Assembly: GCA_049296095.1 (NCBI GenBank)
Contig: JBAQRV010000001.1
Coordinates: forward strand, 270,001 to 302,000
DNA length: 32,000 bases
Direction: 5' to 3'
Source: Candidatus Saccharimonadota bacterium
GTDB taxonomy: Bacteria; Patescibacteriota; Saccharimonadia; Saccharimonadales; Saccharimonadaceae
Of the stretch, positions 1 to 29,476 are shown in pieces. Both the position numbers and the translations under genes were made by a program. The stretch's first letter is position 1, and every line of letters begins with the position of its first letter. Below the pieces are notes generated by a model. The model was not told the DNA's origin. It worked only from the letters and a program-made list of their open reading frames with translations, and ran no database searches.

Positions 1-3000
1 ATGTGACAGTAAATGTTCCGCTCGAAGTAAAGCGATGAATCGTATTGCCACCCGAAGTAGTGATCGTTCCACCCGTCGCCGTCATCGTACCGGTAGGATA
101 GGAGATAATAACCACACCAGAGCCACCGGCACCACCATTTCCGCCGCCATCGCCTCCGCCGCCGCCACCGCCGCCTCTGTTCGCCGTGCCCGCTGCGCCT
201 GCAGTCGGACCGCCACCTTGGCCACCAACACCGCCAGCACAACCCGCCGCCCCTACACCATTAGTAACATTTGCCCAACGGCCACCGCTACCACCGCCTG
301 CGTAGCAGACACTTGCACCACTTATTGAAGTTGTATAGCCGGCCCCTCCTGTACCCGAGACACCTGCGCTCATAGCACCTGTTGCATTACCACCTGCGCC
401 CGTTGCGCCACCGCCACCACCACCTTGACCTGCAGTAGAGTCAGAGGATCCATTACCCCCTCTGTTCCCACGACCGATAGTCCCGAGCATACCCGCACCG
501 GCAACTCCCGTTGCTGCGTCGATCGTCCCTGCGCCGCCGCCACCAGAACCACCTATTGTCGCCTGAGAAACAGAGTTTGTGTTAATGCGCCCGCCGCCGC
601 CGCCGCCGCCTAGAGAGATAATTGTTGAGAATACCGAAGTACCACCCATTCCGCCTGGAGTACCGATGCCAACACCACCACTTCCTCCAGCACCAACCGT
701 TACGGCATACGCCTGCTGGCTTACAACTACCGTACCTTCAGAAACACCGCCACCACCACCGCCACCTGCGTGGTTATTTCCGCCGCCGCCACCGCCACCA
801 ACTACCAGCGCTTGTACCGTTGCTAGTTGTTCTGTATCTGGTACGGGTCGAAAAGCTGCACTATAAGAATAGGGGATTGTACTACTTGTAGACCAGACAA
901 AACCGGCTAACCAACTTGCATCGGTACGAGTTAATATAGAGCTGTCAGATAATTTCCGAACTGAAAGGCTAAACCCAGCGCCACCACTAACATTGTAGTC
1001 TGAAACCGCAAACTGATGTTCACCCTCAGTAAGAGTCACGTTTACCGTATAGACATTGTTATATGAGCCTGAAGCGATGATAGTACCATCAAGATAGATA
1101 TCACAGGTTTCATCGCAGTTATATGTCACCCTCACATCAGTCGGTGAAGTAACCGTAATTGTTCGACTATCGCGAAAGAATGAGTACTGCGCCGACGGGG
1201 AATTACCGGAGCCATCATAATTATGCACTGTCGTAATCCAACGCGCACCCGCATCGCTACTATTACTTGTCCATGCGCTGTTAACTGCCTGTGCACTAAA
1301 CCTATCTCGACTCACTCCCCACATACTTGATAACGCATCAAAATCCTTATGTGCAAAGTTAACCGTGTCACCGGCCGTTGCTCGCCAACTGCGATCTGTC
1401 ACTGCAACTGGGATTGAAGCACCTTCTTGAATGACGCTCGCTTCAAAACGAGCAGCATTGTTTGCTAAGTCTGGACTCAGGTTAATCAAACGTACAAATA
1501 CATTGTGACATCCACTCGATAAAGTGACACTACCGGATCCGAGAGTGCCCGCTTCAGACCTAGTAATATACTTCCCGTCGACATATATATATGCACTATC
1601 GTTCACACCAGACACCTGTACGCCAACGTTATAAGTTCCTGCATTCGTCACGCTAAAGTCTTTCCTGTAGTAGGTCGAGCCGGGATTTAAAGCACTGTCA
1701 GAAATACTTATTGTCTGCGCTAAAGACGTGGGAGAGTAATCGACCTGAGTACTCGTAAGAACAGCTGCTTGCCAACCTAATGTGCTCGAAGTTGCCCCGG
1801 AACATAGATCGGGAACGACCGCCGCCTGGACGCTTGGTTGAGTGTAAGTTCGCCAGACCGATCCATTCGATGTACGAGTAATTTCCGTATAGCCAGTATT
1901 AGGGATAGTGACCGCTTTGCCATCACTATCGAGAGTCGGGCGACCCACACTAAATGAACTGCGGACATTGCCGTTCTGGGTTACGAAACATTGCGGGCCG
2001 CTAGGGCAGGGGGCAGAACTTGAACTTGTCACAGTAAAGGTACCACTCGATGTAAAGGTGTGGGTCGTGCGTCCACCAGAAGTGGTGATCGTGCCCCCGG
2101 TTGCCGTTATCCATCCGGTTGGATAAGAAATAATAACAATACCAGAGCCACCATTACCACCCTTATTATTAGAGTTATAGTGAGACCCTCCGCCGCCGCC
2201 GCCGCCAGTATTAGCGCCAGCGTTACCTCCTGGCGTATTCGTTTGAGCGTTCGGACTACCACCGCCACCAGGCGATCCGTTATTAATACCTAGCGTACCG
2301 CCAAGCGTTACACCGACAGCGCCACCGCCGCCACCGCCAATACCTCCATTGCCGCCAGCAGATAATGTATAAGCAGCGCCACCGCCGCCACCGCCAAAGT
2401 AATATGAACTGATATCTGAATATCGGATTCCAGCCCCTCCGTTTGCCTGGGCAGGTCCACTAGTACCAGCACCACCCGCACCACCACCACCACCTGAATA
2501 ATATGTGGTTGAGGTGGAACCACCTCCATTGTTTCCTTGTCCAAGAGTACCAAGTCCACCGGGCATAAGTGGTGCTCCAGCCGTATAGCCACTTGAACCA
2601 CCGCCGCTGCCACCGGCAGCACCGCCTGGACCAGGCATGTAGATATGATGGGAGCTACCACCTCGGCCACCGCCGAGCGCGTTCACAACCTCAGCACTAT
2701 CGGCTGTATCGGTCGTATCCCGTCCGTACACCTCAACTCGGGCTGTACGATTCATTCCCGATGTACCGCAACAACTATACCAGTCTCCCGCGCTGTAACT
2801 CCCTTGTTTTAGACCGATACCTCCACCCGCATCATCCGAAGTATAGACACCAGCACCGTTCTCATTAAAACGAAAACCCCAGCGTGCTGCGGCGCTACTC
2901 ACACCCAGATCTCCTAGCTTTGTACCCCAGGCAGATGGCCCGGGAGGACCAGTTTGTTGGATTGGTTGGCTACTGAACGCAGTCGAGAAGTACGGTGAGG

Positions 3001-3952
3001 ATGTATGATTACCCCAGTTTCTAAATTCATTGAATCCCTGTAGGGCTGTCCGGCTCGACCATGCACTTGAATGGAGCCAACGCCTATCATCAGCATCTGG
3101 CCATCGAGCCATCAAATCAGTCACTGATGATTCGTTGAATGAACGGAACTTCGCATCGCCGTCATTTCTATTCAATGCCGATTCATTCAACGTATTGGCT
3201 GTATCCCAATAACTAGAGCTGTATGAAAAAGTCGTTCCCCGAGTTGCCTTCATAAGAAGTGTCCAGCCGCCGCCAGTATAAGTCATGTCACAATATGCCT
3301 GGAACGGGCTATTTGGGCCTGTCGTGTCGGGATCAATCCAGTACACGCCATCTGTGTTAATGCCGTCTAGCTTTAGTGAGTAGCAACTTTTACCGGGGAT
3401 GCTCGAACTCGAGCCATAAGTTGGGATAGAGGCAGGCTTAATCGACGAATTTTCTCCATTTTTTGCCGGAATAGTAAACTGGTGAGCAGAAGCTTGACCG
3501 TTAGTACCCCCAGCAGGAGCGCCAGCGCCACCCGCACCGACAGTCACTGTGTACGCCTGGTTTGATATTGGAAGGTCTGCGTTGTACACAACACCACCGC
3601 CACCACCGCCACCGCCCATATCCATACCACCGCCGCCGCCGCCAGCCACGATGAGAGCGCGCACAGTCGGAGCAGACAACTCGTTACCAGCACAATCGGT
3701 CGAGGGGGTGAGCGGCTTCGCATCAGTCCACTGCGGCACATTCTCACTTGCCGTAAGACAGGCTTTCGCGTAAGCAACCCCAGCCTCACCAGCCATCTGA
3801 GCAAGTTGCTGATAGTACTGGGTTTTAAGAGTTGTCCGCACCGCAGCGGTTGCCGAAACGGAAATAGCAAGAATAGACAATAAGATAACTGAAGCAATCA
3901 ACACTGTCGGCAGTGCAAAACCTTTTTTAAAACTGGTGTGCATGGAATGCAT
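1..3952 (-). CDS. Giant secreted/surface protein whose C-terminus is cut by the window edge. It has a prepilin/PilX_N-like N-terminal segment, two polyglycine-rich modules, an inserted fibrinogen-C-like domain and two beta-sandwich repeats.
   Basis: Manual frame check: minus-strand codons starting at 3952, 3949 and so on contain no TAA/TAG/TGA down to position 2 (1,317 codons). The upstream in-frame stop is at 3964..3962, the first ATG at 3952 and a second ATG at 3943. The gene is missing from the track because no stop lies inside the window. N-terminus: MHSMHTSFKKGFALPTVLIASVILLSILAISVSATAAVRTTLKTQYYQQLAQMAGEAGVAYAKACL. Long G-runs occur, e.g. ALIVAGGGGGGMDMGGGGGGGGVVYN..YTVTVGAGGAG. YCDMTYTGGGWTLLMK is present, and the motif GSG(I/V)VIISYPTG..TATGGTITTSGG.T.H.FTSSGTFTVT occurs twice. 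Confidence 0.85.
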   Translation of the reverse strand, partial: MHSMHTSFKKGFALPTVLIASVILLSILAISVSATAAVRTTLKTQYYQQLAQMAGEAGVAYAKACLTASENVPQWTDAKPLTPSTDCAGNELSAPTVRALIVAGGGGGGMDMGGGGGGGGVVYNADLPISNQAYTVTVGAGGAGAPAGGTNGQASAHQFTIPAKNGENSSIKPASIPTYGSSSSIPGKSCYSLKLDGINTDGVYWIDPDTTGPNSPFQAYCDMTYTGGGWTLLMKATRGTTFSYSSSYWDTANTLNESALNRNDGDAKFRSFNESSVTDLMARWPDADDRRWLHSSAWSSRTALQGFNEFRNWGNHTSSPYFSTAFSSQPIQQTGPPGPSAWGTKLGDLGVSSAAARWGFRFNENGAGVYTSDDAGGGIGLKQGSYSAGDWYSCCGTSGMNRTARVEVYGRDTTDTADSAEVVNALGGGRGGSSHHIYMPGPGGAAGGSGGGSSGYTAGAPLMPGGLGTLGQGNNGGGSTSTTYYSGGGGGAGGAGTSGPAQANGGAGIRYSDISSYYFGGGGGGAAYTLSAGGNGGIGGGGGGAVGVTLGGTLGINNGSPGGGGSPNAQTNTPGGNAGANTGGGGGGGSHYNSNNKGGNGGSGIVIISYPTGWITATGGTITTSGGRTTHTFTSSGTFTVTSSSSAPCPSGPQCFVTQNGNVRSSFSVGRPTLDSDGKAVTIPNTGYTEITRTSNGSVWRTYTQPSVQAAVVPDLCSGATSSTLGWQAAVLTSTQVDYSPTSLAQTISISDSALNPGSTYYRKDFSVTNAGTYNVGVQVSGVNDSAYIYVDGKYITRSEAGTLGSGSVTLSSGCHNVFVRLINLSPDLANNAARFEASVIQEGASIPVAVTDRSWRATAGDTVNFAHKDFDALSSMWGVSRDRFSAQAVNSAWTSNSSDAGARWITTVHNYDGSGNSPSAQYSFFRDSRTITVTSPTDVRVTYNCDETCDIYLDGTIIASGSYNNVYTVNVTLTEGEHQFAVSDYNVSGGAGFSLSVRKLSDSSILTRTDASWLAGFVWSTSSTIPYSYSAAFRPVPDTEQLATVQALVVGGGGGGGNNHAGGGGGGGVSEGTVVVSQQAYAVTVGAGGSGGVGIGTPGGMGGTSVFSTIISLGGGGGGGRINTNSVSQATIGGSGGGGAGTIDAATGVAGAGMLGTIGRGNRGGNGSSDSTAGQGGGGGGATGAGGNATGAMSAGVSGTGGAGYTTSISGASVCYAGGGSGGRWANVTNGVGAAGCAGGVGGQGGGPTAGAAGTANRGGGGGGGGDGGGNGGAGGSGVVIISYPTGTMTATGGTITTSGGNTIHRFTSSGTFTVT
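2..811 (-). repeat. Polyglycine-rich module, copy 2 (uninterrupted)
   Basis: ALVVGGGGGGGNNHAGGGGGGGVSEGTVVVSQQAYAVTVGAGGSGG...TSVFSTIISLGGGGGGG...NRGGGGGGGGDGGGNGGAGGSGVVIISYPTGTMTATGGTITTSGGNTIHRFTSSGTFTVT. The terminal 41-aa motif (nt 2..124) parallels nt 2027..2149. Confidence 0.7.
905..1741 (-). repeat. Two tandem beta-sandwich-like (PA14/CBM-like) repeats inside the giant protein
   Basis: Repeat 1 (about 1379..1741): ...YYRKDFSVTNAGTYNVGVQVSGVNDSAYIYVDGKYI...GCHNVFVRLINLS...ARFEASV...VTDRSWRA. Repeat 2 (about 905..1378): ...FFRDSRTITVTSPTDVRVTYNCDETCDIYLDGTII...GEHQFAVSDYNVSGGAGFSLSV...TRTDASWLA. Both share the pattern F....V......V.V....D...IY(V/L)DG..I....G.H.F.V......F.(A/L)SV....TD.SW.A. 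Confidence 0.5.
2027..3658 (-). repeat. Polyglycine-rich module, copy 1 (interrupted by the fibrinogen-like insert)
   Basis: Runs from ALIVAGGGGGG...QAYTVTVGAGGAG through the insert and ...GGGGGGGSHYNSNNKGGNGGSGIVIISYPTGWITATGGTITTSGGRTTHTFTSSGTFTVT. It has the same order of elements as copy 2. Confidence 0.7.
2720..3394 (-). other. Fibrinogen C-terminal-like (FReD) domain embedded in the giant protein
   Basis: Translation: GKSCYSLKLDGINTDGVYWIDPDTTGPNSPFQAYCDMTYTGGGWTLLMKATRGTTFSYSSSYWDT...RTARVEVYGR. This matches the hallmark pattern SC..L...G....G(V/I)Y.I.P......PF.(V/A)YCDM.T.GGGWT(V/L) of fibrinogen-related domains. Confidence 0.7.
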
Positions 3953-10892: not shown

Positions 10893-12125
10893 ATGAACCC
10901 TGATAAAAGCAGTCCTGGTGGAGATATGCCAACGCCTTCGTTGTCAGGGAGTTCGATACCCCCAAATCCAGCCCCTTCAACACAGGACGCCGCAGCTAAT
11001 GTTATCCGCTCACAAATCGATCAACTCTATAATAATACCTCCGCTCCTGACAACTCAAGAGAAGTGACACCTGTCGCACAGGTACATGAAGAACCAGTCA
11101 AGCAAGCGATTCTCGCCGACACCAATCCCTATCATCGCACCCACACGCCTCATTCCACTCCGCAGGCTGACCAGTGGAAAGAGTATCACAGCGCATGGCA
11201 GAATTATTACCAGAAATATTACGAGAACTATTACACTCAGACAGCCGCACAAGCACAGCAACCTCAGGGAAGTCATTATTTTTCTGGCTCATCACGGCAG
11301 CCTGAAAGAATTGAAGAGACCGCAGAAGAGCTGTCCAACGACCAAGCACTCTATGAGCTTCGACAAAAACTTCTTGGCAAAGTACAGGCTTCGGCAAAAA
11401 AGATCCGACGCAGCCGTCATTTCGTTCCCATTGCCGCGGCTCTTGGTGTCGTCCTCATTTTTGTGTTCCTCCAATATAACCGTGTCTTCATCGCCAACGT
11501 CGCCGCCTACGTCTCTCCTGGCAGTATTGATCCGCAGAATATTGTCGTTGATCCATCTAATGATATCGTCGTCAGCAACGACCCTCGACTCATCATCCCA
11601 AAGATCAATGTCGATGTCCCTGTACTCTATGATGTCGGGACTGACAATGCCTCCCAAATGGCTGCCATGGAAAAAGGAGTGGCTCATTTCCCAATCCCTG
11701 GGGCAAACAGTCATCCCGGCGAAATAGGCAATACCGCCATTGCAGGGCACAGTAGCAATGACCTGTTTGATCAGGGTGATTACAAGTTTATTTTTGCTCA
11801 GCTCGAGAAACTGGCACCAGGCGATAGTATATACGCCAACTACCAAGGCAAACGCTACACCTACGTTGTCACAAAAATGGAAGTCGTGAAACCAAATGAA
11901 ATCGGCAAGCTAGTGTATCCAACTGACAAACCCGTCCTCACCCTGATTACCTGCACCCCACTGGGTACCGCTATTAACCGTTTGCTTGTCACTGCCGAAC
12001 AAGTGAGCCCCGACCCTTCAGCAGCCGCTGCAGCCCCAGAAGGCGCTGGCCAGGGCGATGACACCAGTGCTATCCCAGGCAATTCACCAACCTTATTCGA
12101 ACGACTATTCGGCGGCGGTAACTAG
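10893..12125 (+). CDS. Sortase family transpeptidase (class E-like) with a long N-terminal cytoplasmic extension
   Basis: Catalytic His in TAIAGHSSN, TLxTC in LTLITCTP, Arg in NRLLVTAEQ. TM segment HFVPIAAALGVVLIFVFLQY. The N-terminal extension of about 180 aa is Q/Y/W-rich (WKEYHSAWQNYYQKYYENYY). ATG 10893 is preceded by AGGAA. The track start 10857 abuts the tRNA. Confidence 0.85.
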   Translation: MNPDKSSPGGDMPTPSLSGSSIPPNPAPSTQDAAANVIRSQIDQLYNNTSAPDNSREVTPVAQVHEEPVKQAILADTNPYHRTHTPHSTPQADQWKEYHSAWQNYYQKYYENYYTQTAAQAQQPQGSHYFSGSSRQPERIEETAEELSNDQALYELRQKLLGKVQASAKKIRRSRHFVPIAAALGVVLIFVFLQYNRVFIANVAAYVSPGSIDPQNIVVDPSNDIVVSNDPRLIIPKINVDVPVLYDVGTDNASQMAAMEKGVAHFPIPGANSHPGEIGNTAIAGHSSNDLFDQGDYKFIFAQLEKLAPGDSIYANYQGKRYTYVVTKMEVVKPNEIGKLVYPTDKPVLTLITCTPLGTAINRLLVTAEQVSPDPSAAAAAPEGAGQGDDTSAIPGNSPTLFERLFGGGN

Positions 12126-13594
12126 TCGAGGATCATTTTCACGCGCTGGAGATAGTAGCTGTCACCCGACTTCACCATGCTGTAAAGATAGCGACCATTT
12201 TGGCTCAACGTAACGTCTAAACCTTGTGCAACCGAGTTAATAGTGTGGCTATTCGTGCCATCGAACTCGCGAATAACCAAGGTACCGCCATAATCAGTCC
12301 ATAGATATGCATTATCTAACCAGTGGAGTTGCGGTACGGGCTGGTCAGCGATCGCCGTGATAGAACCAGTCGTGGCTCGCTCATGCTCTAGCTCATAGCC
12401 GACAAAGCTCAGCCCTGACTGCACCACCAAGTAGTCGCCGTCTTCACTAAAGGAAAGCTGCGAAACCGCTCCGTTAACCGTCAGTTCATGTTGAACTTTC
12501 AGGCTTGAGACATCATCATTGCTCGAGGTTGGGTAGGTACCCTTTAGAACGGTCACTTTTAGCCCTTCGGCTATCACGACATAATCATCATTGCGATATA
12601 TGACCATGTCAATAAACAGGGGAGTCTCGAGCGATGAAACGGTGCGAAGAACGTGCGGTGCCGCATCACCATCACGATACACCCCAGCCACCTGCTGGGC
12701 GGCATTATTCGGATCAATACCGACATAACTAATCCTATTCGTCTCAGACAGATCAAACGTCTTCACATTACTAATAAGCGGTCGAGAAATTGTCGCAGCT
12801 GATACGTCAAGCTTACGAACCGTCCCATCACTTAACAGGCCGTAGAGTAGCGAGCCATTCGTGCCAGCAAACTCTAGTTGAGACACAGAGATGCTCAAGA
12901 GACGGCTAATATTGACGCTAGCATCAGGATTTTGCGTATCGAACACGATCCATTCACCCGTGTCATTATAGGCGTGCTTTAGAAGCACATAGCGACCACC
13001 CAGGTCCCAGTGATCCAGCGTGAAACTATGGGTCACACCAGCCGTCGTTGCCTCACTATACGCAGCTGCGGGCAATGCGATGGCTGTCGACTTAATATCC
13101 TGCGAACGAAGGTCGACCAGCTGGAAAGTTGGCGTATCGGTTTTTTCTTGAATAATGAGTGTCTTTAGGTCTGGTGAGGCTTTTTCACCAACGATAGTTG
13201 AATACGTCGCAACCGTTTCTGGTTTGAGATCCTTGGGAACTAATCGAATGTAATCAAGCCAGGTGAGCGTACCGGCCTTCACAGTCAGAGATTTTGCCCA
13301 TGACTCGTAGCCATTCTTACTCACGACAAACGAATGCGCACCAGCTAGTACCGATTGTTTGCCAGCCGTTCGCACGCCAGTTGGTTTACTGTCGATTGCT
13401 ATGTCCGCACCAGCAGGCACTGACTCAAACTGCAGCAAAGCACCTTGTTCGAGGCGACCCTTTTCACTATCGAGGCGAAAGCCCAAAATGAAGAGAATCG
13501 TACCCGTGACAATCACCAAGACGGCGAGAACCGAAATGACTGACACAATAATGCGCTGAAGTAATAACTGCTTCTTTGAAGGTCGTCGATACAT
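12122..13594 (-). CDS. PEGA-domain membrane protein with a C-terminal beta-propeller-like region
   Basis: N-terminal TM segment IIVSVISVLAVLVIVTGTILFILGF. PEGA-type block FESVPAGADIAIDSKPTG...AGAHSFVVSKNGYESW. The stop codon shares the palindrome CTAG (12122-12125) with the sortase stop. Confidence 0.75.
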   Translation of the reverse strand: MYRRPSKKQLLLQRIIVSVISVLAVLVIVTGTILFILGFRLDSEKGRLEQGALLQFESVPAGADIAIDSKPTGVRTAGKQSVLAGAHSFVVSKNGYESWAKSLTVKAGTLTWLDYIRLVPKDLKPETVATYSTIVGEKASPDLKTLIIQEKTDTPTFQLVDLRSQDIKSTAIALPAAAYSEATTAGVTHSFTLDHWDLGGRYVLLKHAYNDTGEWIVFDTQNPDASVNISRLLSISVSQLEFAGTNGSLLYGLLSDGTVRKLDVSAATISRPLISNVKTFDLSETNRISYVGIDPNNAAQQVAGVYRDGDAAPHVLRTVSSLETPLFIDMVIYRNDDYVVIAEGLKVTVLKGTYPTSSNDDVSSLKVQHELTVNGAVSQLSFSEDGDYLVVQSGLSFVGYELEHERATTGSITAIADQPVPQLHWLDNAYLWTDYGGTLVIREFDGTNSHTINSVAQGLDVTLSQNGRYLYSMVKSGDSYYLQRVKMILD

Positions 13595-16164: not shown

Positions 16165-17271
16165 ATGTTCAAACACAAAAAGCTTTCTTTAAACGTGAAA
16201 GAAACCGGACCAAAAAGTCCGAACTGGTTTCGTCGTCACAAAAAACTCGTCATTATCCTCAGTTTCGTACTGGTTATTTTGATCGGCGGGGGAGTTGCAG
16301 CTGCTGTCTATTTCCTCAACCAAAAGCCTGTCGAAACACCAGCAAAAGTCGAGCAACCAACGCCACCGCCAGAACCACCAAAGTACTATTCGCCTCTAAC
16401 GGGTAATCTTGTCGCTACAGAAGCCATCACCCAGCAAGCAGTCACAGGCATCATGATCGAAAATAGCCCCGATGCACGGCCACAATCGGGCCTCAAAGAC
16501 AGTGGCGTTATCTTCGAAGCGATTGCCGAAGGTGGTATTACACGCTTCCTCGTCTTGTACCAAGAGCAAAAACCCCAACTCATCGGACCAGTCCGCAGTG
16601 TACGCATGTACTATGTCGACTGGGTCGCTGCCTTTAACGCCAGCGTTGCTCATATCGGCGGCAGTTCCGAAGCACTCAAAGAGGTCAGGAACGGCAATTA
16701 TCGAGATATCGACCAGTTCTTCAACGCAGGATCATATTGGCGCGCCACTGATCGCTATGCGCCCCACAATGTTTACACCAGCTTTGAACGTCTCGATGCG
16801 CTCAATGCTGCCAAAGGATATACCACCTCCACATTTACAGGCTTTACCCGCAAAGATAGTAAGACTGCTGAAATTCTAACCGCTTCTTCAGTTGACGTGA
16901 CGATCAGCAGCTTCACCTACAACAGCCACTACGACTACGATGCAACGACTGGCCTCTACAACCGTTCCCAGGCGGGCGCACCGCACACCGATAGGGAAGC
17001 AGGGCAGATCAGTCCGCGAGTTGTGATTGTGATGAAGATTCCAGAGACACTCGTCTTTGAAGATGGCTACCGACAACAACTCACTACCATCGGGAGCGGT
17101 ACGGCGTATATTTTCCAGGACGGTACCGCACAGGAGGTCACTTGGACCAAGGCCAGCAAGACTGATCAGATCAAGTTTACCGACACCGAAGGCAAAGACG
17201 TGCCGCTCGCGAGAGGCCAAACCTGGCTGACAGCCGTTCCTGCTGATACCGGAGGTGCAACGTGGCAGTAA
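16165..17271 (+). CDS. DUF3048 (YerB-like) extracytoplasmic protein with an N-terminal TM anchor
   Basis: TM segment LVIILSFVLVILIGGGVAAAVYFL. MIENSPDARPQSGLKDSGVIFEAIAEGGITRFLVLYQ is the typical DUF3048 core. Confidence 0.8.
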   Translation: MFKHKKLSLNVKETGPKSPNWFRRHKKLVIILSFVLVILIGGGVAAAVYFLNQKPVETPAKVEQPTPPPEPPKYYSPLTGNLVATEAITQQAVTGIMIENSPDARPQSGLKDSGVIFEAIAEGGITRFLVLYQEQKPQLIGPVRSVRMYYVDWVAAFNASVAHIGGSSEALKEVRNGNYRDIDQFFNAGSYWRATDRYAPHNVYTSFERLDALNAAKGYTTSTFTGFTRKDSKTAEILTASSVDVTISSFTYNSHYDYDATTGLYNRSQAGAPHTDREAGQISPRVVIVMKIPETLVFEDGYRQQLTTIGSGTAYIFQDGTAQEVTWTKASKTDQIKFTDTEGKDVPLARGQTWLTAVPADTGGATWQ

Positions 17272-18827
17272 ACGAGCCACAACGACTTGCAAAGGACTTT
17301 TGGCCCCACTTTAATCGCGGCGTCACCATTCTCATCATTCTGATACAAGCATCCTTTTTAGTCGCCGTCGCCGCCCTTCTATACTTTCTCGACCTGTTTA
17401 CTAACCATCCCATAGCCTTTGCGAGTATTCTCATTATCCAGGCAGTCCTTGGGACGATCGCTTCACTCATCATCTACCAGTTCGTCGCACGTCCGATAAG
17501 AGATCTCTTAGCAGCCATTATTCATGTCTCTGGCGAACCAACCGCGATCACGCCCCCGAACCCTAACGATGCTCGTTTTGCGCGCAGTGGATTTAAACAG
17601 GTCCTCCAAACGATCTACCAATTAGCCAGTAAGGACACAGTATTAGACTCAGCCCCCGCACCCGTGGCTCAACCCGGGGAAGTGCACCCCGTATCCAGCC
17701 CGTCTCATCTCATTGAGACTGCCCTCAACGAGACGATTTGTGGCTTTGTTGTGATGAACAAGGACCGCGTCATTACCTATTCAAACAAAGCGGCACCTAT
17801 ACAGGTTGATCAAAACGGCGTTGCGTCACTCAGTCTCTTGTTCAATGGCGAAGATACGCTCGCAGCCTGGTTAGCCGAATGTGAGGAGAGCGCTGTCCAC
17901 GCCGAGCACACTTGGTCACGTGTCCCAGATAAACTACCAGACGAAGAGAATCGTCGCTTTTTCGATGTCATCGCATCATACGACAAGGGAGCTGAAAGCG
18001 AAGTCGTCCTGACACTTATTGACCGAACTCAGCTATATAATGTCGGCGAACAAGAGCTTGATTTCATCGCTTTTGCTGCTCATGAATTGCGTGGGCCAAT
18101 TACCGTTATTCGCGGCTATCTTGATGTTCTAGAGGATGAATTAAAAGATGTTCTCAAGGACGATCAACACGAGTTGTTCCGCCGCCTGACAGTCTCGGCT
18201 AACCGCCTATCTGGCTATATTAACAATATCTTAAATACCTCTCGCTATGATCGTCGTCACCTCAAAATGCACTTGGCAGAGACGACAGTCGCTTCTGTTT
18301 ACGACACTATTAGGGACGACATGCAACTACGCGCCAGCGCCCAAAACCGCTTACTATCCGTCACCATCCCCGAGGGGCTTCCAACCATAGCCGCAGACCC
18401 CGCCAGCCTGAGTGAAGTCTTTGGCAACCTTATCGACAATGCCATTAAGTACAGTAACGAGGGTGGCGCCATTAATGTTACAGCGGCCGTCAAAGGTGAT
18501 TTCGTTGAAATAGCCGTCGAAGACCACGGTATCGGCATGCCAGGCAATGTCGTCAGTAATCTCTTCCAAAAGTTTTACCGCTCACACCGTTCCCGCGAAA
18601 CTGTCGCCGGAACGGGTATCGGCCTCTATATTTCCAAGGCAATCGTTGAATCACACGGCGGTACCATTAGTGTCAGGAGCGAAGAAGGCAAGGGCTCAAC
18701 CTTTATCGTTTCACTTCCGACCTTCCAATCAGTTGCAGACAAGCTCAAAGCAGGTAATAATAGTAACGAAGGATTTATCGAGCAAAACAGTGGTTGGATT
18801 AAAAACCACTCAATGTATCGAGGGTAG
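17262..18827 (+). CDS. Sensor histidine kinase (HK1)
   Basis: GTG start 5 nt after GGAGGT, overlapping the upstream gene by 10 nt. Two N-terminal TM segments. H-box AAHELRGPITVIRGY, N-box NLIDNAIKYS, G1 DHGIGMP, G2 GTGIGLYISKAIVESHGG. Confidence 0.9.
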   Translation: MAVNEPQRLAKDFWPHFNRGVTILIILIQASFLVAVAALLYFLDLFTNHPIAFASILIIQAVLGTIASLIIYQFVARPIRDLLAAIIHVSGEPTAITPPNPNDARFARSGFKQVLQTIYQLASKDTVLDSAPAPVAQPGEVHPVSSPSHLIETALNETICGFVVMNKDRVITYSNKAAPIQVDQNGVASLSLLFNGEDTLAAWLAECEESAVHAEHTWSRVPDKLPDEENRRFFDVIASYDKGAESEVVLTLIDRTQLYNVGEQELDFIAFAAHELRGPITVIRGYLDVLEDELKDVLKDDQHELFRRLTVSANRLSGYINNILNTSRYDRRHLKMHLAETTVASVYDTIRDDMQLRASAQNRLLSVTIPEGLPTIAADPASLSEVFGNLIDNAIKYSNEGGAINVTAAVKGDFVEIAVEDHGIGMPGNVVSNLFQKFYRSHRSRETVAGTGIGLYISKAIVESHGGTISVRSEEGKGSTFIVSLPTFQSVADKLKAGNNSNEGFIEQNSGWIKNHSMYRG

Positions 18828-22051: not shown

Positions 22052-24007
22052 TTGTCATTGTCACGATTTTGGCACCGCCGAATTTATGAGGTGGTCTTTT
22101 TGCTATGCTTAGCTATTATCGCTCTCTACGTCGTGCCGATCGTCACAAATGTATCAGCGACCGGCTTATTCGGTATTAGCATTTGGGTAGCGATGAGCGC
22201 TGGCGTGACCGCTCTGGCAAGTTTGGCGCTTTACATCTTTAGTCCAAAACAACCACATTACGTCCTACCCCTGATGGTATACCTATTGTTTGCCGCCACC
22301 GTCGCACTACTTGTGATTCAAACGGGCGGCACGATGTCACCATTTATCGCCCTCTGGATGCTAGTGTCATTCTTTGGCGGTATTTTTGCCGTCTGGGGGG
22401 CAGTCCCTTTACTGGTTGCAAGTGCGGCTTTTATCGCCTCAATCTATCTCAATGGGGAGCTGTCGATCGGCGCAGTAGCATTAGTCGCCTTTACCTCAGT
22501 CGTTCCTCTCATTATCAGTATCGTTATCTGGCGCGACCAAGGTGAAAATGATGAAGCAACCAAAAATGTCAAAAACCTCGCCAGCCAGCTATCCGAGGTA
22601 GCGAATAAATCTGAAATTGTCATTAACGCCATTGGTGACGGCGTGATAGCTATTGATAGTCAAGGGGTCATCCAACTCATCAACCCCGCTGGACAGGAAC
22701 TCTTGGGATGGGGGAAGCAAGACGCCTTGATGCTTAATTACAAGTCAGTCTTACAGATGACCGACCAGAATAATCATGAAATAACACCCGAAAACGACCC
22801 GATTCGCCAGGTGCTGAACACCAACCAACAAATGCGCTCAAACAACCTTATTATCCTGACAAAATCAGGTAAAAAGATTAACGCCTCGATCGTCGTGTCG
22901 CCAATCGGTGAGTCTGGCAACGGAGTTATCACGGTATTTAGTGATATCACCAAGCAAAAAGCTGAAGAGCGCGAGCAAGCCGAATTCATCAGCACCGCCA
23001 GTCACGAAATGCGGACGCCGGTTGCTTCTATCGAAGGGTACTTGGGACTCGCACTGAACCCAAATACCGCCACAATTGATGAAAAGGCCCGTGACTTTAT
23101 CATGAAAGCCCACGAAGCCGCTCAGCACCTTGGACGCCTCTTCCAGGACCTGCTCGACGTCTCTAAATCCGAGGATGGCCGTATGACGAGCATACCGAAA
23201 GTTGTTGATATGACCGTCTTTACTCAGACGATTGTTCAAGGGTTAGCACCAAAGGCTCAAGAAAAGGGTCTCAAACTTGTCTATGTACCATCCGAAAATG
23301 ATGGGGTGAGAAAGATCGCCCCAGTATATTTTGTTAATCAGGATAACGACCATATCCGAGAAGTCCTAGATAATTTAATTGAAAACGGCATCAAATACAC
23401 GCCAAAAGGCGAGGTCATTGTCGACATCAATGGCACGGACGATAAAGTCATTGTCAGCGTCAAGGATACAGGTCTCGGCATCCCAGCCGAGGATATCCCG
23501 CATCTCTTTCAAAAATTCTACCGCGTCGATAATATCGACCGTCAGGCAATTGGCGGCACTGGCCTCGGCCTCTTCCTGTGTCGTCGTCTGGCCGAAGCTA
23601 TGGGTGGCCGACTTTGGGTAGAAAGTGTCTACACCAAAGGAAGCACCTTCTTCTTTGAACTACCTCGAGTCAACAGCCAAGACGCTACGCGGCTAAAGGA
23701 ACAGCAAGCCCTCCAGGCACAACAAGCCGCTGCTACACAGCCAACTGCTACAGCGCCTGTATTCACTCCTGCTCCTCAGGCCGCCACACCAGCCAGTACG
23801 CCTGCGCCGACCCCAATACCGACTTCATCCGAAACCAAACCAGCGACGACCGTCCCGCGCGGCGAGAGCCTCACCCGTGAACAAATTGCCGAGCATGTCC
23901 GTCAGCTCCAGGCGATGGCTCGTGGCACACAAACAGTCCCGCAACGCCCAGTCACACAGATCCCCGTCAGTGACGGATCACCACCTCCTGGACCACCCCA
24001 AGCATAA
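22052..24007 (+). CDS. Sensor histidine kinase (HK2) with polytopic N-terminus, PAS-like region and a P/A/T/Q-rich C-terminal tail
   Basis: H-box ASHEMRTPVASIEGY, N-box NLIENGIKYT, DTGLGIP, GTGLGLFLCRRLAEAMGG. The tail reads QALQAQQAAATQPTATAPVFTPAPQAATPASTPAPTPIPT...GSPPPGPPQA. The TTG start at 22052 is uncertain. Confidence 0.85.
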   Translation: MSLSRFWHRRIYEVVFLLCLAIIALYVVPIVTNVSATGLFGISIWVAMSAGVTALASLALYIFSPKQPHYVLPLMVYLLFAATVALLVIQTGGTMSPFIALWMLVSFFGGIFAVWGAVPLLVASAAFIASIYLNGELSIGAVALVAFTSVVPLIISIVIWRDQGENDEATKNVKNLASQLSEVANKSEIVINAIGDGVIAIDSQGVIQLINPAGQELLGWGKQDALMLNYKSVLQMTDQNNHEITPENDPIRQVLNTNQQMRSNNLIILTKSGKKINASIVVSPIGESGNGVITVFSDITKQKAEEREQAEFISTASHEMRTPVASIEGYLGLALNPNTATIDEKARDFIMKAHEAAQHLGRLFQDLLDVSKSEDGRMTSIPKVVDMTVFTQTIVQGLAPKAQEKGLKLVYVPSENDGVRKIAPVYFVNQDNDHIREVLDNLIENGIKYTPKGEVIVDINGTDDKVIVSVKDTGLGIPAEDIPHLFQKFYRVDNIDRQAIGGTGLGLFLCRRLAEAMGGRLWVESVYTKGSTFFFELPRVNSQDATRLKEQQALQAQQAAATQPTATAPVFTPAPQAATPASTPAPTPIPTSSETKPATTVPRGESLTREQIAEHVRQLQAMARGTQTVPQRPVTQIPVSDGSPPPGPPQA

Positions 24008-24052: not shown

Positions 24053-24940
24053 ATGGCGAAAATTTTATTGGTAGAAGACGACAAGAGCTTGCGCGAAATC
24101 TACGGCGTCCGTTTAATGGCTGAGGGCTATGAAATCGTATCAGCCGGTGATGGGGAAGAGGCTCTCGCAATGGCGATCAAAGAGCGTCCCAACCTTATTG
24201 TCAGCGATGTCATGATGCCAAAGATTAGTGGCTTTGACATGCTCGACATCCTCCGTAGTACCACCGAAACCAAAGACATTAAGGTTATTATGATGACCGC
24301 ACTTTCCAGTGATGACCAACGTGCCCGTGGCGAAGCCCTTGGTGCCGATCGTTACCTCGTCAAATCCCAGGTCGGTATCGAAGACGTCGTTCGCACCGTC
24401 CACGACGTACTCGGTGATGGTGTTCCAGGCGCCGCAGCCGCTCCGACAACCTTCCCACCAGCTCCGGCCGCCGCAACTACTCCAGCAACTGGACCAGTCG
24501 CGCCAACCCCAGTCCCTGAAGCGCCAGCCGTTTCTGCTATGCCAGTCCCAACTCCCGCTCCCGAGCCAGTGGTTCCAATCGCACCCGTCGCACCGATGAC
24601 ACCTCCAGCCGCTGCGCCTGTACCTATGACACCAGCAGCAGAGCCTGTAACTCCTCCTGTTATTAATCTTCCGCCAACGCCTGCACCTGCGCCAGTCACA
24701 CCACCAGCGGCACCTGTCGTACCAGCACCAACGCCGACGCAAATCCTCCCAGAGCCAACCGCGCCGTTCTCATCGCCGCGTCCAGCCTCACTCGGTGACA
24801 GGATCATTAATCCCATCGATCCGACCCTAGGTGGAGCACCGACCGTTGATATCGCTGCGCAGATGAACCAAGAGCTCAACGCTGCACCACAACCACCTTT
24901 GCCACCTCAGCCACCAGTTCCTCCAGTTCCCAGCGTCTAG
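24053..24940 (+). CDS. Response regulator (RR2): receiver domain plus a proline/alanine-rich low-complexity tail of about 175 aa, with no DNA-binding domain
   Basis: ILLVEDD...NLIVSDVMMP...VIMMTAL...YLVKSQ, then GVPGAAAAPTTFPPAPAAATTPATGPVAPTPVPEAP...PQPPLPPQPPVPPVPSV. Confidence 0.85.
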   Translation: MAKILLVEDDKSLREIYGVRLMAEGYEIVSAGDGEEALAMAIKERPNLIVSDVMMPKISGFDMLDILRSTTETKDIKVIMMTALSSDDQRARGEALGADRYLVKSQVGIEDVVRTVHDVLGDGVPGAAAAPTTFPPAPAAATTPATGPVAPTPVPEAPAVSAMPVPTPAPEPVVPIAPVAPMTPPAAAPVPMTPAAEPVTPPVINLPPTPAPAPVTPPAAPVVPAPTPTQILPEPTAPFSSPRPASLGDRIINPIDPTLGGAPTVDIAAQMNQELNAAPQPPLPPQPPVPPVPSV

Positions 24941-28618: not shown

Positions 28619-29476
28619 GTGGAAATCAAGCATCTCAATCCAAAGGGTCACAGCTTTCTTCGGCCACTGTTACAGCTTGCAAAACCGCCGAAAGCATTAT
28701 ATCTTAAAGGCTCCCTGCCGACGACGCGTAAAACTGTGGTCGCCATAGTTGGATCTAGGAAGCCTACCTCTTATGGTAAAGAGGTGACCTTTGATTTAGC
28801 TTATAGCTTGGCTAAAAGAGGAGTGGTCATCGTGAGCGGCCTGGCATTTGGGGTGGACGCAATTGCTCACCGAGGAGCGCTCGAAGCAGGCGGAACGACT
28901 ATTGCTATACTGCCCGGTGGACTCGAGAGCATTTACCCAGCCGCGCATCAAAAGCTCGCTGAGGAGATTGTAGAGAAGGGAGGTGCCCTTCTCAGCGAAT
29001 ACGAGTCAGGAAAGCCTCAAAAGTATCAATTCCTCGCCCGCAACCGCATTATTAGCGGCCTAGCAGATGCGATTGTGATTACGGAGGCAGGTGAGAGGAG
29101 CGGCACACTTTCAACCACCAATCACGCGCTCGATCAGAATAAGGAAGTGTTTGCAGTTCCAGGTAATATTACGAGCCTATTGTCTATCGGGCCAAATCGC
29201 CTGATTCAGCAGGGGGCGCACCCAGTCCTCGGTGCTGATGACATCCTCGAGGTTATTGCGCCTCATTTATTACAACCTCAAACTTCATTCCCATTAGGGT
29301 CGAACCCTGCGGAAACAAAGATCATCAAGCTCTTACAGCAAGGGACGCGCAGCAATGACGAACTCCAGCAACAGTCCAGATTAAGTACCAGCGAGTTCGC
29401 CAGCACTTTAACTATGCTTGAGATAAACAAGGTTATCAGATCGTCTGGTAGCAATCAGTGGATGCTTATGGAATGA
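28619..29476 (+). CDS. dprA: DNA-processing protein DprA (Smf)
   Basis: VAIVGSRKPTSYG, SGLAFGVDAIAHRGAL, RNRIISGLADAIVITEAGERSGTLSTTNHALDQNKEVFAVPG. GTG start, TGA stop. Confidence 0.85.
   Translation: MEIKHLNPKGHSFLRPLLQLAKPPKALYLKGSLPTTRKTVVAIVGSRKPTSYGKEVTFDLAYSLAKRGVVIVSGLAFGVDAIAHRGALEAGGTTIAILPGGLESIYPAAHQKLAEEIVEKGGALLSEYESGKPQKYQFLARNRIISGLADAIVITEAGERSGTLSTTNHALDQNKEVFAVPGNITSLLSIGPNRLIQQGAHPVLGADDILEVIAPHLLQPQTSFPLGSNPAETKIIKLLQQGTRSNDELQQQSRLSTSEFASTLTMLEINKVIRSSGSNQWMLME

Follow-up and report, generated by a model that had tools for sequence, protein, structure and literature searches.

A predicted intelectin-like fibrinogen-related domain nested in a glycine-rich module of a Saccharibacteria protein

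A fibrinogen-related domain (FReD) encoded by an episymbiotic bacterium raises the question of what kind of domain this is, how it is carried by its protein, and what it may do for the cell. We address this question for a window of 32,000 nucleotides (positions 270,001 to 302,000 of contig JBAQRV010000001.1, assembly GCA_049296095.1), in which a preliminary description, made from the sequence alone, had pointed to a lectin-type domain of the fibrinogen C kind at positions 2720–3394, inserted into a bacterial pilin-like protein. The assignment to an episymbiont lineage is borne out, as the window belongs to the Saccharibacteria and, from exact matches of ten proteins encoded nearby, comes from a metagenome-assembled genome (MAG) of Candidatus Microsaccharimonas, order Saccharimonadales, phylum Saccharimonadota. 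Likewise, the sequence strings quoted in that description do sit at their given positions in the minus-strand translation, in which 2720–3394 is exactly residues 187–411 of a long glycine-rich protein. Based on profile comparisons and a predicted model, we find that these residues form a divergent FReD that is nearest to the intelectins, and that this domain is nested within a glycine-rich module of the phage tail-fibre kind. The reading that we prefer, to which we give a probability of about 0.55, takes the domain to be the ligand-binding head of a phage-fibre-like adhesin that is anchored to the cell and serves in host attachment.

A divergent member of the fibrinogen-related domains

Two curated profiles recognise the domain above their cutoffs. 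The Pfam Fibrinogen_C profile (PF00147) matches with 29.8 bits (E 6.6e-7) for the domain and with 27.9 bits for the whole protein, compared to a gathering score of 22, and the NCBIfam model NF040941 (GGGWT_bact, with the curated name ‘fibrinogen-like YCDxxxxGGGW domain-containing protein’) matches over the full model, 1–46 of 46, with 63–63.9 bits (E 9.7e-18; cutoff 30). The Fibrinogen_C match spans only positions 2–54 of the 221 in the profile, short of full coverage of the A, B and P subdomains. Similarly, the phmmer matches among PDB sequences (MFAP4, FIBCD1, fibrinogen beta, XEEL/intelectin, angiopoietins, tenascins and tachylectin 5A) all fall within the first ∼55 residues, and likeness to the animal FReDs by sequence is restricted to the first 55–95 of the 225 residues. 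The profile E-values and the outcome of a fold search described below, in which the best 50 matches are FReDs, lead us to reject a chance occurrence of the motif, and the earlier view that this is a genuine domain of the fibrinogen-related type stands.

The conserved unit, as judged from alignment of its homologues, is all 225 residues and is more than the motif. A homologue search with the domain returned 369 proteins, and among the 120 listed, nearly all cover 94–100% of the query. A family profile made from 117 sequences and run over 1.84 billion cluster representatives (50%-identity clusters) gave 368, 1222 and 4366 matches at E thresholds of 1e-30, 1e-10 and 1e-3, respectively. Twenty columns are invariant in the family (G228, G229, W230, K235, T241, W249, L255, A267, K268, N273, A282, W292, R357, W358, N363, D374, G378, G380, D390 and R402); all 20 are present in the window protein, and the family has the C-terminal motif R-x-A-R-V-E-x-Y-x-R.

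This type of domain is not new. It is an NCBI-curated family of bacterial and archaeal proteins, in which a Pedobacter puniceum homologue (P0115) already bears the NF040941 name in NCBI, and it is also a phage family in the PHROGs collection, phrog_1325, which matches the window domain with E 3e-22 over domain residues 14–219, as well as 112 of 117 scanned members of the family. Compared to P0115 and to the phrog_1325 proteins of P-HM2 and P-TIM40, the window domain is ∼40% identical over its whole length, with the same RxARVExYxR end and all of the invariant residues. It differs from them in two respects. First, those proteins have the domain at the C-terminus, whereas in the window protein it has an internal position and loops out from a glycine-rich module. 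Second, the window subfamily has an extra Cys (SCYSL) and a different loop region at residues 287–356. The extra Cys, Cys190, which is present in 15 of the 117 aligned family members, aligns with the Cys of ‘RDC’ in FIBCD1 and of ‘RSC’ in intelectin; Cys221 belongs to the YCDM motif. In animal FReDs, the first Cys is paired with the YCDM Cys as a disulfide. The Cys190/Cys221 pair at the N-terminal end of the domain, a putative disulfide, is the sole canonical FReD feature that is kept.

The AlphaFold2 model of the domain, obtained with the family alignment, has a mean predicted local distance difference test score (pLDDT) of 91.8 and a predicted TM-score (pTM) of 0.90. Foldseek finds 125 matches to this model in the PDB at E ≤1e-3, and the best 50 of these 125 are all of the FReD fold with a probability of 1.00. 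This ranking is headed by XEEL, lamprey serum lectin and human intelectin-1 (E 1e-7; TM-score for the query, TMq, 0.47–0.50), followed by angiopoietin-1, MFAP4, FIBCD1, ficolins, tenascin, FGL1 and tachylectin 5A. Intelectin-type lectins are also top-ranked when the family profile is compared to PDB sequences, and hhalign aligns this profile to intelectin-1 with 93% probability over 97 columns and to FIBCD1 with 88% probability over 45 columns (the intelectin-1 and FIBCD1 query sequences were checked against the PDB before these alignments); the confident alignment to FIBCD1, from phmmer and hhalign, is of 45–55 residues. The domain, on the strength of this predicted model and the profiles, is a divergent FReD nearest the X-type lectins, which we read as homologous to the known FReDs but strongly diverged outside the core. 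The preliminary description had instead likened the domain to acetyl-binding lectins such as the ficolins and FIBCD1, a likeness that finds little support, since both the profile and the fold comparisons rank the intelectins (X-type lectins) closest.

The intelectins (human intelectin-1, 4WMQ/6USC; Xenopus XEEL, 4WMO; lamprey lectin, 7E1E) are the best matches both in structure and from profile to PDB; the 97 aligned columns take in the YCDM..GGGW core and the stretch NWANYNTFG/YWDTANTLN, and both proteins end in ...Y-x-R. However, the window domain has 225 residues, compared to ∼280 in the intelectins, and the TM-scores are ∼0.5 or below. With the ficolins, FIBCD1 and tachylectin 5A, the window domain has in common the Fibrinogen_C score above the gathering threshold, the matched YCDM..GGGW motif, the position of Cys190 on the FIBCD1 Cys and a core of ∼115 residues at 4–5 Å, but the profile match goes no further than the positions given above.

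Nesting in a glycine-rich module of the phage tail-fibre type

The window protein has two glycine-rich modules, and the proposal that the domain is nested in the first of them is confirmed by the alignment of module 1, freed of the insert, to module 2 on both flanks. With residues 187–411 taken out, the two modules align from VRALIVAGGGG/VQALVVGGGGG through IVIISYPTG/VVIISYPTG. Compared to a Gly_rich_2 consensus from 121 proteins (...YTVTVGAGGAG...GxxGxNSxFxxITAxGGGGGG...), the insert point is between GENSSI and VVNALGGG. The segments that flank the insert are adjacent short strands in the model of module 2 (model residues 67–69 and 72–74), and thus we consider that the domain is looped out of the turn of a hairpin. 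It is connected by a Ser/Gly-rich linker (PTYGSSSS) on one side and by an acidic, Asp/Thr-rich linker (DTTDTAD) on the other.

A composite with the same insertion site is found in three other proteins from the candidate phyla radiation (CPR), encoded at loci L002, L004 and L006. All three have Ser/Gly-rich linkers of the form xYGSSx/xFGSSx, and the acidic linker after the domain is NISDTAD in L002 and L004 and NTNDPPD in L006. The L002 protein (1546 residues) has the same N-terminus, RGFALPTVLIAS, and a domain 71% identical to that of the window; the L004 protein (673 residues) bears the composite on a canonical type IV pilin, with the signal RRGFTIVELM; and the L006 protein, from Levyibacteriota, has >2500 residues. 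A degenerate composite is present in L008, from Woesearchaeota. Outside these composites, the family members examined all end in the domain at their C-terminus. We found no description of a conserved composite at a fixed Gly_rich_2 hairpin, or of its sharing among CPR, DPANN and phage-type proteins. Directly downstream of the composite pilin gene of L004 lies a large pilin-like gene (L004 7431–8972; 513 residues; N-terminus QSGFTVVELL), such that the two form a pilin gene pair.

The position of the domain bears on the possibility that it is a knob for structure, folding or oligomerisation with no ligand of its own, comparable to the C-terminal NC1 domain that fibrillar collagens have or to the ends through which phage fibres trimerise. 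Most members of the family have the domain exactly at the C-terminus, ending in RxARVExYxR, which speaks for such a knob; ficolins and intelectins are trimeric, and the second-best Pfam match is COLFI, the C-terminal domain of fibrillar collagens, although it falls below its cutoff. However, a domain that is internal and looped out of a hairpin, both here and in L002, L004 and L006, is ill-suited to be a C-terminal assembly nucleus, and many of the invariant residues are polar or charged (D266, K268, N273, R357, N363, D374, D390 and R402), as would be more usual in a site for binding or for a metal than in a simple knob. We therefore consider the knob to be quite unlikely, and favour the ligand-binding head.

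The glycine-rich modules themselves resemble phage proteins. They match Pfam PF21722 (Gly_rich_2) in two stretches with 86.3 bits (4e-24; gathering score 24.3), and they match phrog_2295 (2e-41) and a ‘tail fiber assembly’ PHROG. The solved structures nearest to the AlphaFold model of module 2 (pLDDT 93.3) are the tail tip of mycobacteriophage Bxb1 (9D93) and the fibre of cyanophage Pam3 (7YPX), and more weakly the glycine-rich domain of human ALK/LTK, although these Foldseek values are weak throughout (E 1.5e-3 to 9.5e-3, TMq 0.34–0.38). The carrier modules match the family of glycine-rich phage fibre domains, but one of the modules here holds a nested FReD-like domain. We found >1500 homologues of the carrier, some of which are fused to pilin N_methyl, to LamG-type lectin domains or to a T9SS sorting domain.

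If the gene were a prophage or phage-derived tail-fibre gene, and not a cellular adhesin, it would be expected that both types of module match phage protein families and phage structural proteins, as indeed they do. The gene has housekeeping neighbours, however (glutaredoxin, hydrolase, glycosyltransferases, SmpB and the F1Fo ATP synthase operon), and no phage genes were found in the 32-kb window. In addition, the protein begins with a membrane or pilin-like segment, and the orthologues in other CPR genomes are pilins. A phage origin of the gene is accordingly highly improbable in our view, and we retain the reading of a cell-anchored adhesin.

To survey the distribution of the domain, we used a taxonomic scan with one genome per species. 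The domain is present in the CPR (Saccharibacteria, Paceibacteria, Minisyncoccia and Levyibacteriota), in DPANN archaea (Aenigmatarchaeota, Woesearchaeota and Nanoarchaeota), in many freshwater Bacteroidota (Flavobacterium, Aquirufa, Sediminibacterium and Pedobacter) and in Actinomycetota. The CPR carriers, in Saccharibacteria and Paceibacteria, are type IV pilins (KGFTLLEILL...) with the domain strictly C-terminal. The domain is C-terminal as well in the DPANN carriers, which have archaeal pilin-like N-termini, and in the Bacteroidota carriers, which have ordinary signal peptides.

Among phages, the domain was found by tblastn in the T4-like cyanophages S-H9-1, S-H9-2, ACG-2014h, P-HM2 and P-TIM40. 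The P-TIM40 homologue, gp043 (L082 4101–5690), has 529 residues with the domain at the C-terminus, and its gene has a ‘tail fiber assembly’ gene on either side and a gene for a ‘tail fiber protein’ upstream. Two tryptophan halogenase genes are located somewhat downstream of gp043. The predicted structure of the P-HM2 homologue superposes on the window domain with a TMq of 0.86 and a root-mean-square deviation of 2.2 Å, and other BFVD matches bear annotations of fibrinogen C-terminal domain proteins or of a tail fibre-like protein.

The window domain is 61% identical to that of a protein from an Aenigmatarchaeota MAG (P0003; L005 843–1514), which has the archaeal pilin-like N-terminus MKAISPIIAIIIILLITIAIAG; Woese- and Nanoarchaeota also carry the domain (L007–L010). 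Such an identity suggests, as far as sequences can, a recent transfer between CPR and DPANN, or contamination in binning. The 61% identity between a Saccharibacteria protein and a pilin-like protein of Aenigmatarchaeota is also among the grounds for a more general and doubtful proposal, that the ultra-small CPR and DPANN episymbionts attach via phage-tail-fibre-like receptor-binding cassettes, in each of which an intelectin-like FReD head would project from a fixed hairpin of a glycine-rich fibre module, and which would move among phages, bacterial pilins and archaeal pilins. Under this proposal, the prokaryotic and viral pool could also be the source of the animal intelectin-type FReDs. Phage and bacterial FReDs have been discussed regarding the origin of the intelectins (PMC9682848).

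Anchoring, ligand and a possible role in host attachment

The protein had been called pilin-like, and this holds only in part. In favour, the N-terminus is hydrophobic and of the pilin type (KKGFALPTVLIAS), the same composite is borne by the canonical pilin of L004, and the nearest free-standing homologues are pilins; on the other side, Glu5 is absent and the pilin profiles failed. The N-terminus reads KKG|FALPT, with Thr at +5, and thus departs from the Gly-Phe-x-x-x-Glu motif. That motif is found in relatives such as L004 (RRGFTIVELM) and L053 (KGFTLLEILL), and the relative P0001 has a precomputed PF07963 match. The N-terminal segment may anchor the protein in the membrane, or it may be the non-canonical signal of a minor pilin. 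Minor pilins located at the tip, such as GspK, also have no Glu5. Similarly, PilX1 and PilX2 of Nanosynbacter lyticus TM7x, which bind the host, were reported to have no canonical prepilin-peptidase signal (PMC11623550). With the modular and minor pilins (Streptococcus sanguinis PilB/PilC; TM7x PilX1/PilX2), the window protein has in common a hydrophobic pilin-type N-terminus that bears a bulky module, and with PilX1/PilX2 also the non-canonical signal. It differs from the modular pilins in the nature of the module, which is FReD/intelectin-like here but vWA, concanavalin-like, beta-jelly-roll or beta-propeller there, and in that the window gene is outside any pilus locus, such that its status as a pilin is putative.

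If the domain is the head of an adhesin, the parts of the protein could work together as follows. The N-terminal pilin-like helix would anchor the protein in the membrane or, like the tip minor pilins that have no Glu5, would place it where a type IV filament begins. The glycine-rich modules of the phage-tail-fibre type would make up the body of the fibre, and the 225-residue intelectin-like globular domain would project from the beta-hairpin turn of module 1. This head would recognise a structure on the surface of the host bacterium, with a glycan of the cell envelope as the most probable candidate, and would in this way contribute to host recognition and attachment. We infer surface exposure, a binding function and a role in host attachment; binding to something on the host surface is suggested because the family sits at the ends of pilins, in proteins of phage tail-fibre blocks and in secreted proteins. 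The argument for a glycan as the ligand draws only on kinship with the intelectins and on what is known of TM7x, and we give it roughly even odds. In TM7x, host binding is aided by minor pilins that have lectin-like domains and non-canonical signal peptides, and the cell-wall glycans of the host matter for it (PMC11623550). Moreover, modular pilins with lectin modules are widespread (PMC8179133), and the candidates proposed for host adhesion include the ‘Fibrinogen C’ domains of giant Patescibacteria surface proteins (PMC13059738).

Several observations weigh against an adhesin head of this kind. We found no experimentally characterised member of the prokaryotic and viral family in the literature. 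The TM-scores to solved FReDs are only 0.31–0.50, and the superposition is of a local core of ∼115 columns at 4–5 Å. The N-terminal 100 residues have no match to Pfam N_methyl (PF07963) or PilX_N, even at E ≤10, and the NCBIfam prepilin model gives 14.6 bits (E 0.037), compared to a cutoff of 86; moreover, there is no pilus locus around the gene in the 32-kb window. FReD folds bind peptides and proteins too, and the fold alone implies no glycan ligand.

The remaining points on this side concern the residues of the ligand and calcium sites, as no known ligand-binding residues were found to be conserved in alignments to intelectin and to FIBCD1/ficolin. In human intelectin-1, the ligand calcium site and the aromatic box comprise N260, E262, E274, W288 and Y297. 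There is no confident alignment past intelectin residue ∼147, and so there is none at this ligand site; where the alignment is forced further, the column confidence is close to zero. The structural-calcium loop of the intelectins, with the consensus HENxxxGxCTxGD (PMC9682848), is deleted in the window domain, and hhalign leaves a gap of nine residues opposite VHENDMRGK.

The C-terminal part of the domain was compared to FIBCD1 with stretched hhalign alignments (-mact 0.05, both -loc and -glob, against small alignments built from PDB sequences), in which column confidence is near zero after about residue 95. At this low confidence, FSSQ is paired with FTTKD (FSSQPIQQT being opposite FTTKDRDSD of FIBCD1), RWGFRFNENGAGVY with GAWWYRNCHTSNLNGQY, SYSAGDWY with SYADGVEW and ARVEVYGR with FSEMKIR; the calcium Asp-x-Asp of FIBCD1, ficolins and tachylectin 5A and the Cys-Cys of their P domain have no evident counterpart, and the acetyl-pocket residues are ambiguous. 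A weak, colinear phmmer alignment places YSAGDWYSCCGTSGMN opposite FIBCD1 Y405RGAWWYRNCH415TSNLN, with the Tyr kept and a Gly at the position of the His. In FIBCD1, the Asp residues of the FTTKDRDSD stretch serve as calcium ligands, and the P-domain Cys residues form a disulfide. These two C-terminal alignments contradict each other, and we rely on neither. Thus the acetyl pocket and calcium site, which the preliminary description had raised as features that might be kept as in ficolin and tachylectin 5A, were not recovered in these low-confidence alignments.

Failure to recover the calcium and acetyl-site residues of the lectins would also be expected if the domain binds a peptide or protein, such as a surface protein of the host or the stem peptide of peptidoglycan, and not a glycan. 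Indeed, the protein-binding FReDs (angiopoietins, MFAP4, tenascin and FGL1) score about like the lectins in the fold search. Parallels for a protein ligand exist in the binding of Gly-Pro-Arg knobs by fibrinogen gamma, of Tie2 by angiopoietin and of LAG-3 by FGL1. However, the closest relatives in both sequence and structure, the intelectins, are glycan binders, and both the characterised tips of phage fibres and the minor-pilin modules of Saccharibacteria point to glycans, such that we regard a peptide or protein ligand as unlikely.

Among Saccharibacteria and other CPR episymbionts, TM7x is the one case in which host recognition has been studied genetically, and there lectin-like minor pilins and the cell-wall glycans of the host are implicated. 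The domain family was already catalogued, and lectin modules on surface proteins of Saccharibacteria are a published idea. The window protein would add a different type of binding module to the CPR repertoire, an intelectin-like FReD predicted with confidence and borne on a phage-fibre-like glycine-rich scaffold, and identification of the ligand for one member of the family would inform several hundred protein clusters.

Gene layout and genomic neighbourhood

The positions of the gene and its parts are collected in Table 1. The gene is on the minus strand, where one long open reading frame (ORF) covers 2720–3394 and is open past the left edge of the window; beyond this edge, the public contig (GCA_049286885.1) has only three codons (S-I-N) and a stop. 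The ORF starts at an ATG at 3952, whereas the NCBI record (MFZ2126344.1, ‘glycine-rich domain-containing protein’) has the protein begin at a second ATG in the same frame, at 3943. On the plus strand, none of the three frames is open throughout 2720–3394, and the plus-strand ORFs over the gene (35–866 and 2060–3773; Pro/Thr/Arg-rich, for example at 579–866) mirror the polyglycine coding strand; a plus-strand reading is therefore rejected. Within the protein, SCYSLKLDG is at residues 189–197, YCDMTYTGGGWTLLMK at 220–235 and ARVEVYGRD at 404–412.

Table 1. Positions of the gene and its parts in the 32-kb window; residues are numbered from the ATG at 3952
Feature	Residues	Window positions	Strand	Remarks
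Whole gene		1–3952	-	1320 residues (ATG 3952) or 1317 residues (ATG 3943); stop just beyond the left edge
N-terminal basic and hydrophobic segment, KKGFALPTVLIASVILLSILAISVSATAAV	9–40	3833–3928	-	Pilin/pseudopilin-like; Thr in place of Glu at +5 after Gly
Glycine-rich module 1, N-terminal part	97–171	3440–3664	-	VRALIVAGGGGGG ... YTVTVGAGGAG ... GENSSI; stops at the first strand of the insert-bearing hairpin
N-terminal linker into the insert, KPASIPTYGSSSSIP	172–186	3395–3439	-	Ser/Gly-rich
Fibrinogen-related/intelectin-like domain	187–411	2720–3394	-	Prokaryotic and viral ‘YCDxxxxGGGW’ family
Signature core, SCYSL...YCDMTYTGGGWTLL	189–233	3254–3388	-	Part matched by NF040941 and Pfam Fibrinogen_C; holds Cys190 and Cys221
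C-terminal linker out of the insert, DTTDTADSAE	412–421	2690–2719	-	Acidic, Asp/Thr-rich
Glycine-rich module 1, C-terminal part	422–642	2027–2689	-	VVNALGGG ... GSGIVIISYPTG, tail TGGTITTSGGRTTHTFTSSGTFTVT; phrog_2295 6e-22
Central region, ∼400 residues	643–1039	836–2026	-	Three Cys pairs; no Pfam or PHROG match
Glycine-rich module 2	1040–1317	1–835	-	No insert; Pfam Gly_rich_2; AlphaFold model

Pfam gave no meaningful match for the N-terminal 100 residues or for a central stretch of 425 residues, and the PHROGs gave none for the central region. The protein has no LPxTG motif and ends in ...TFTVTSIN, and on these grounds we do not consider it an obvious sortase substrate. The repeats found within the gene are confined to its two glycine-rich modules. 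We considered and rejected a target of a diversity-generating retroelement, as no repeat that pairs with the FReD region was found in the 32-kb window.

The gene is flanked by a divergently transcribed glutaredoxin gene and, downstream on the same strand, by the F1Fo ATP synthase operon. For the gene of a surface fibre, a place directly upstream of this operon is unusual. The operon is complete (L001 1–5891, left of the window), with genes for the ATPase_gene1 family, A, C, B, delta, alpha, gamma and beta. The rest of the window has housekeeping genes, which encode glycosyltransferases, SmpB, NUDIX, GltX, Der, TopA, DprA (28619–29476) and a hydrolase, together with genes for a sortase, a PEGA protein and two-component systems. 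The sortase gene (12125 being its last position, 10857 its first, plus strand) is convergent with the gene for the PEGA-domain protein (490 residues; 12122–13594, minus strand), and the two-component systems comprise two histidine kinases, one at 17262–18827 and one with a PAS domain at 22052–24007, as well as a response regulator at 24053–24940.

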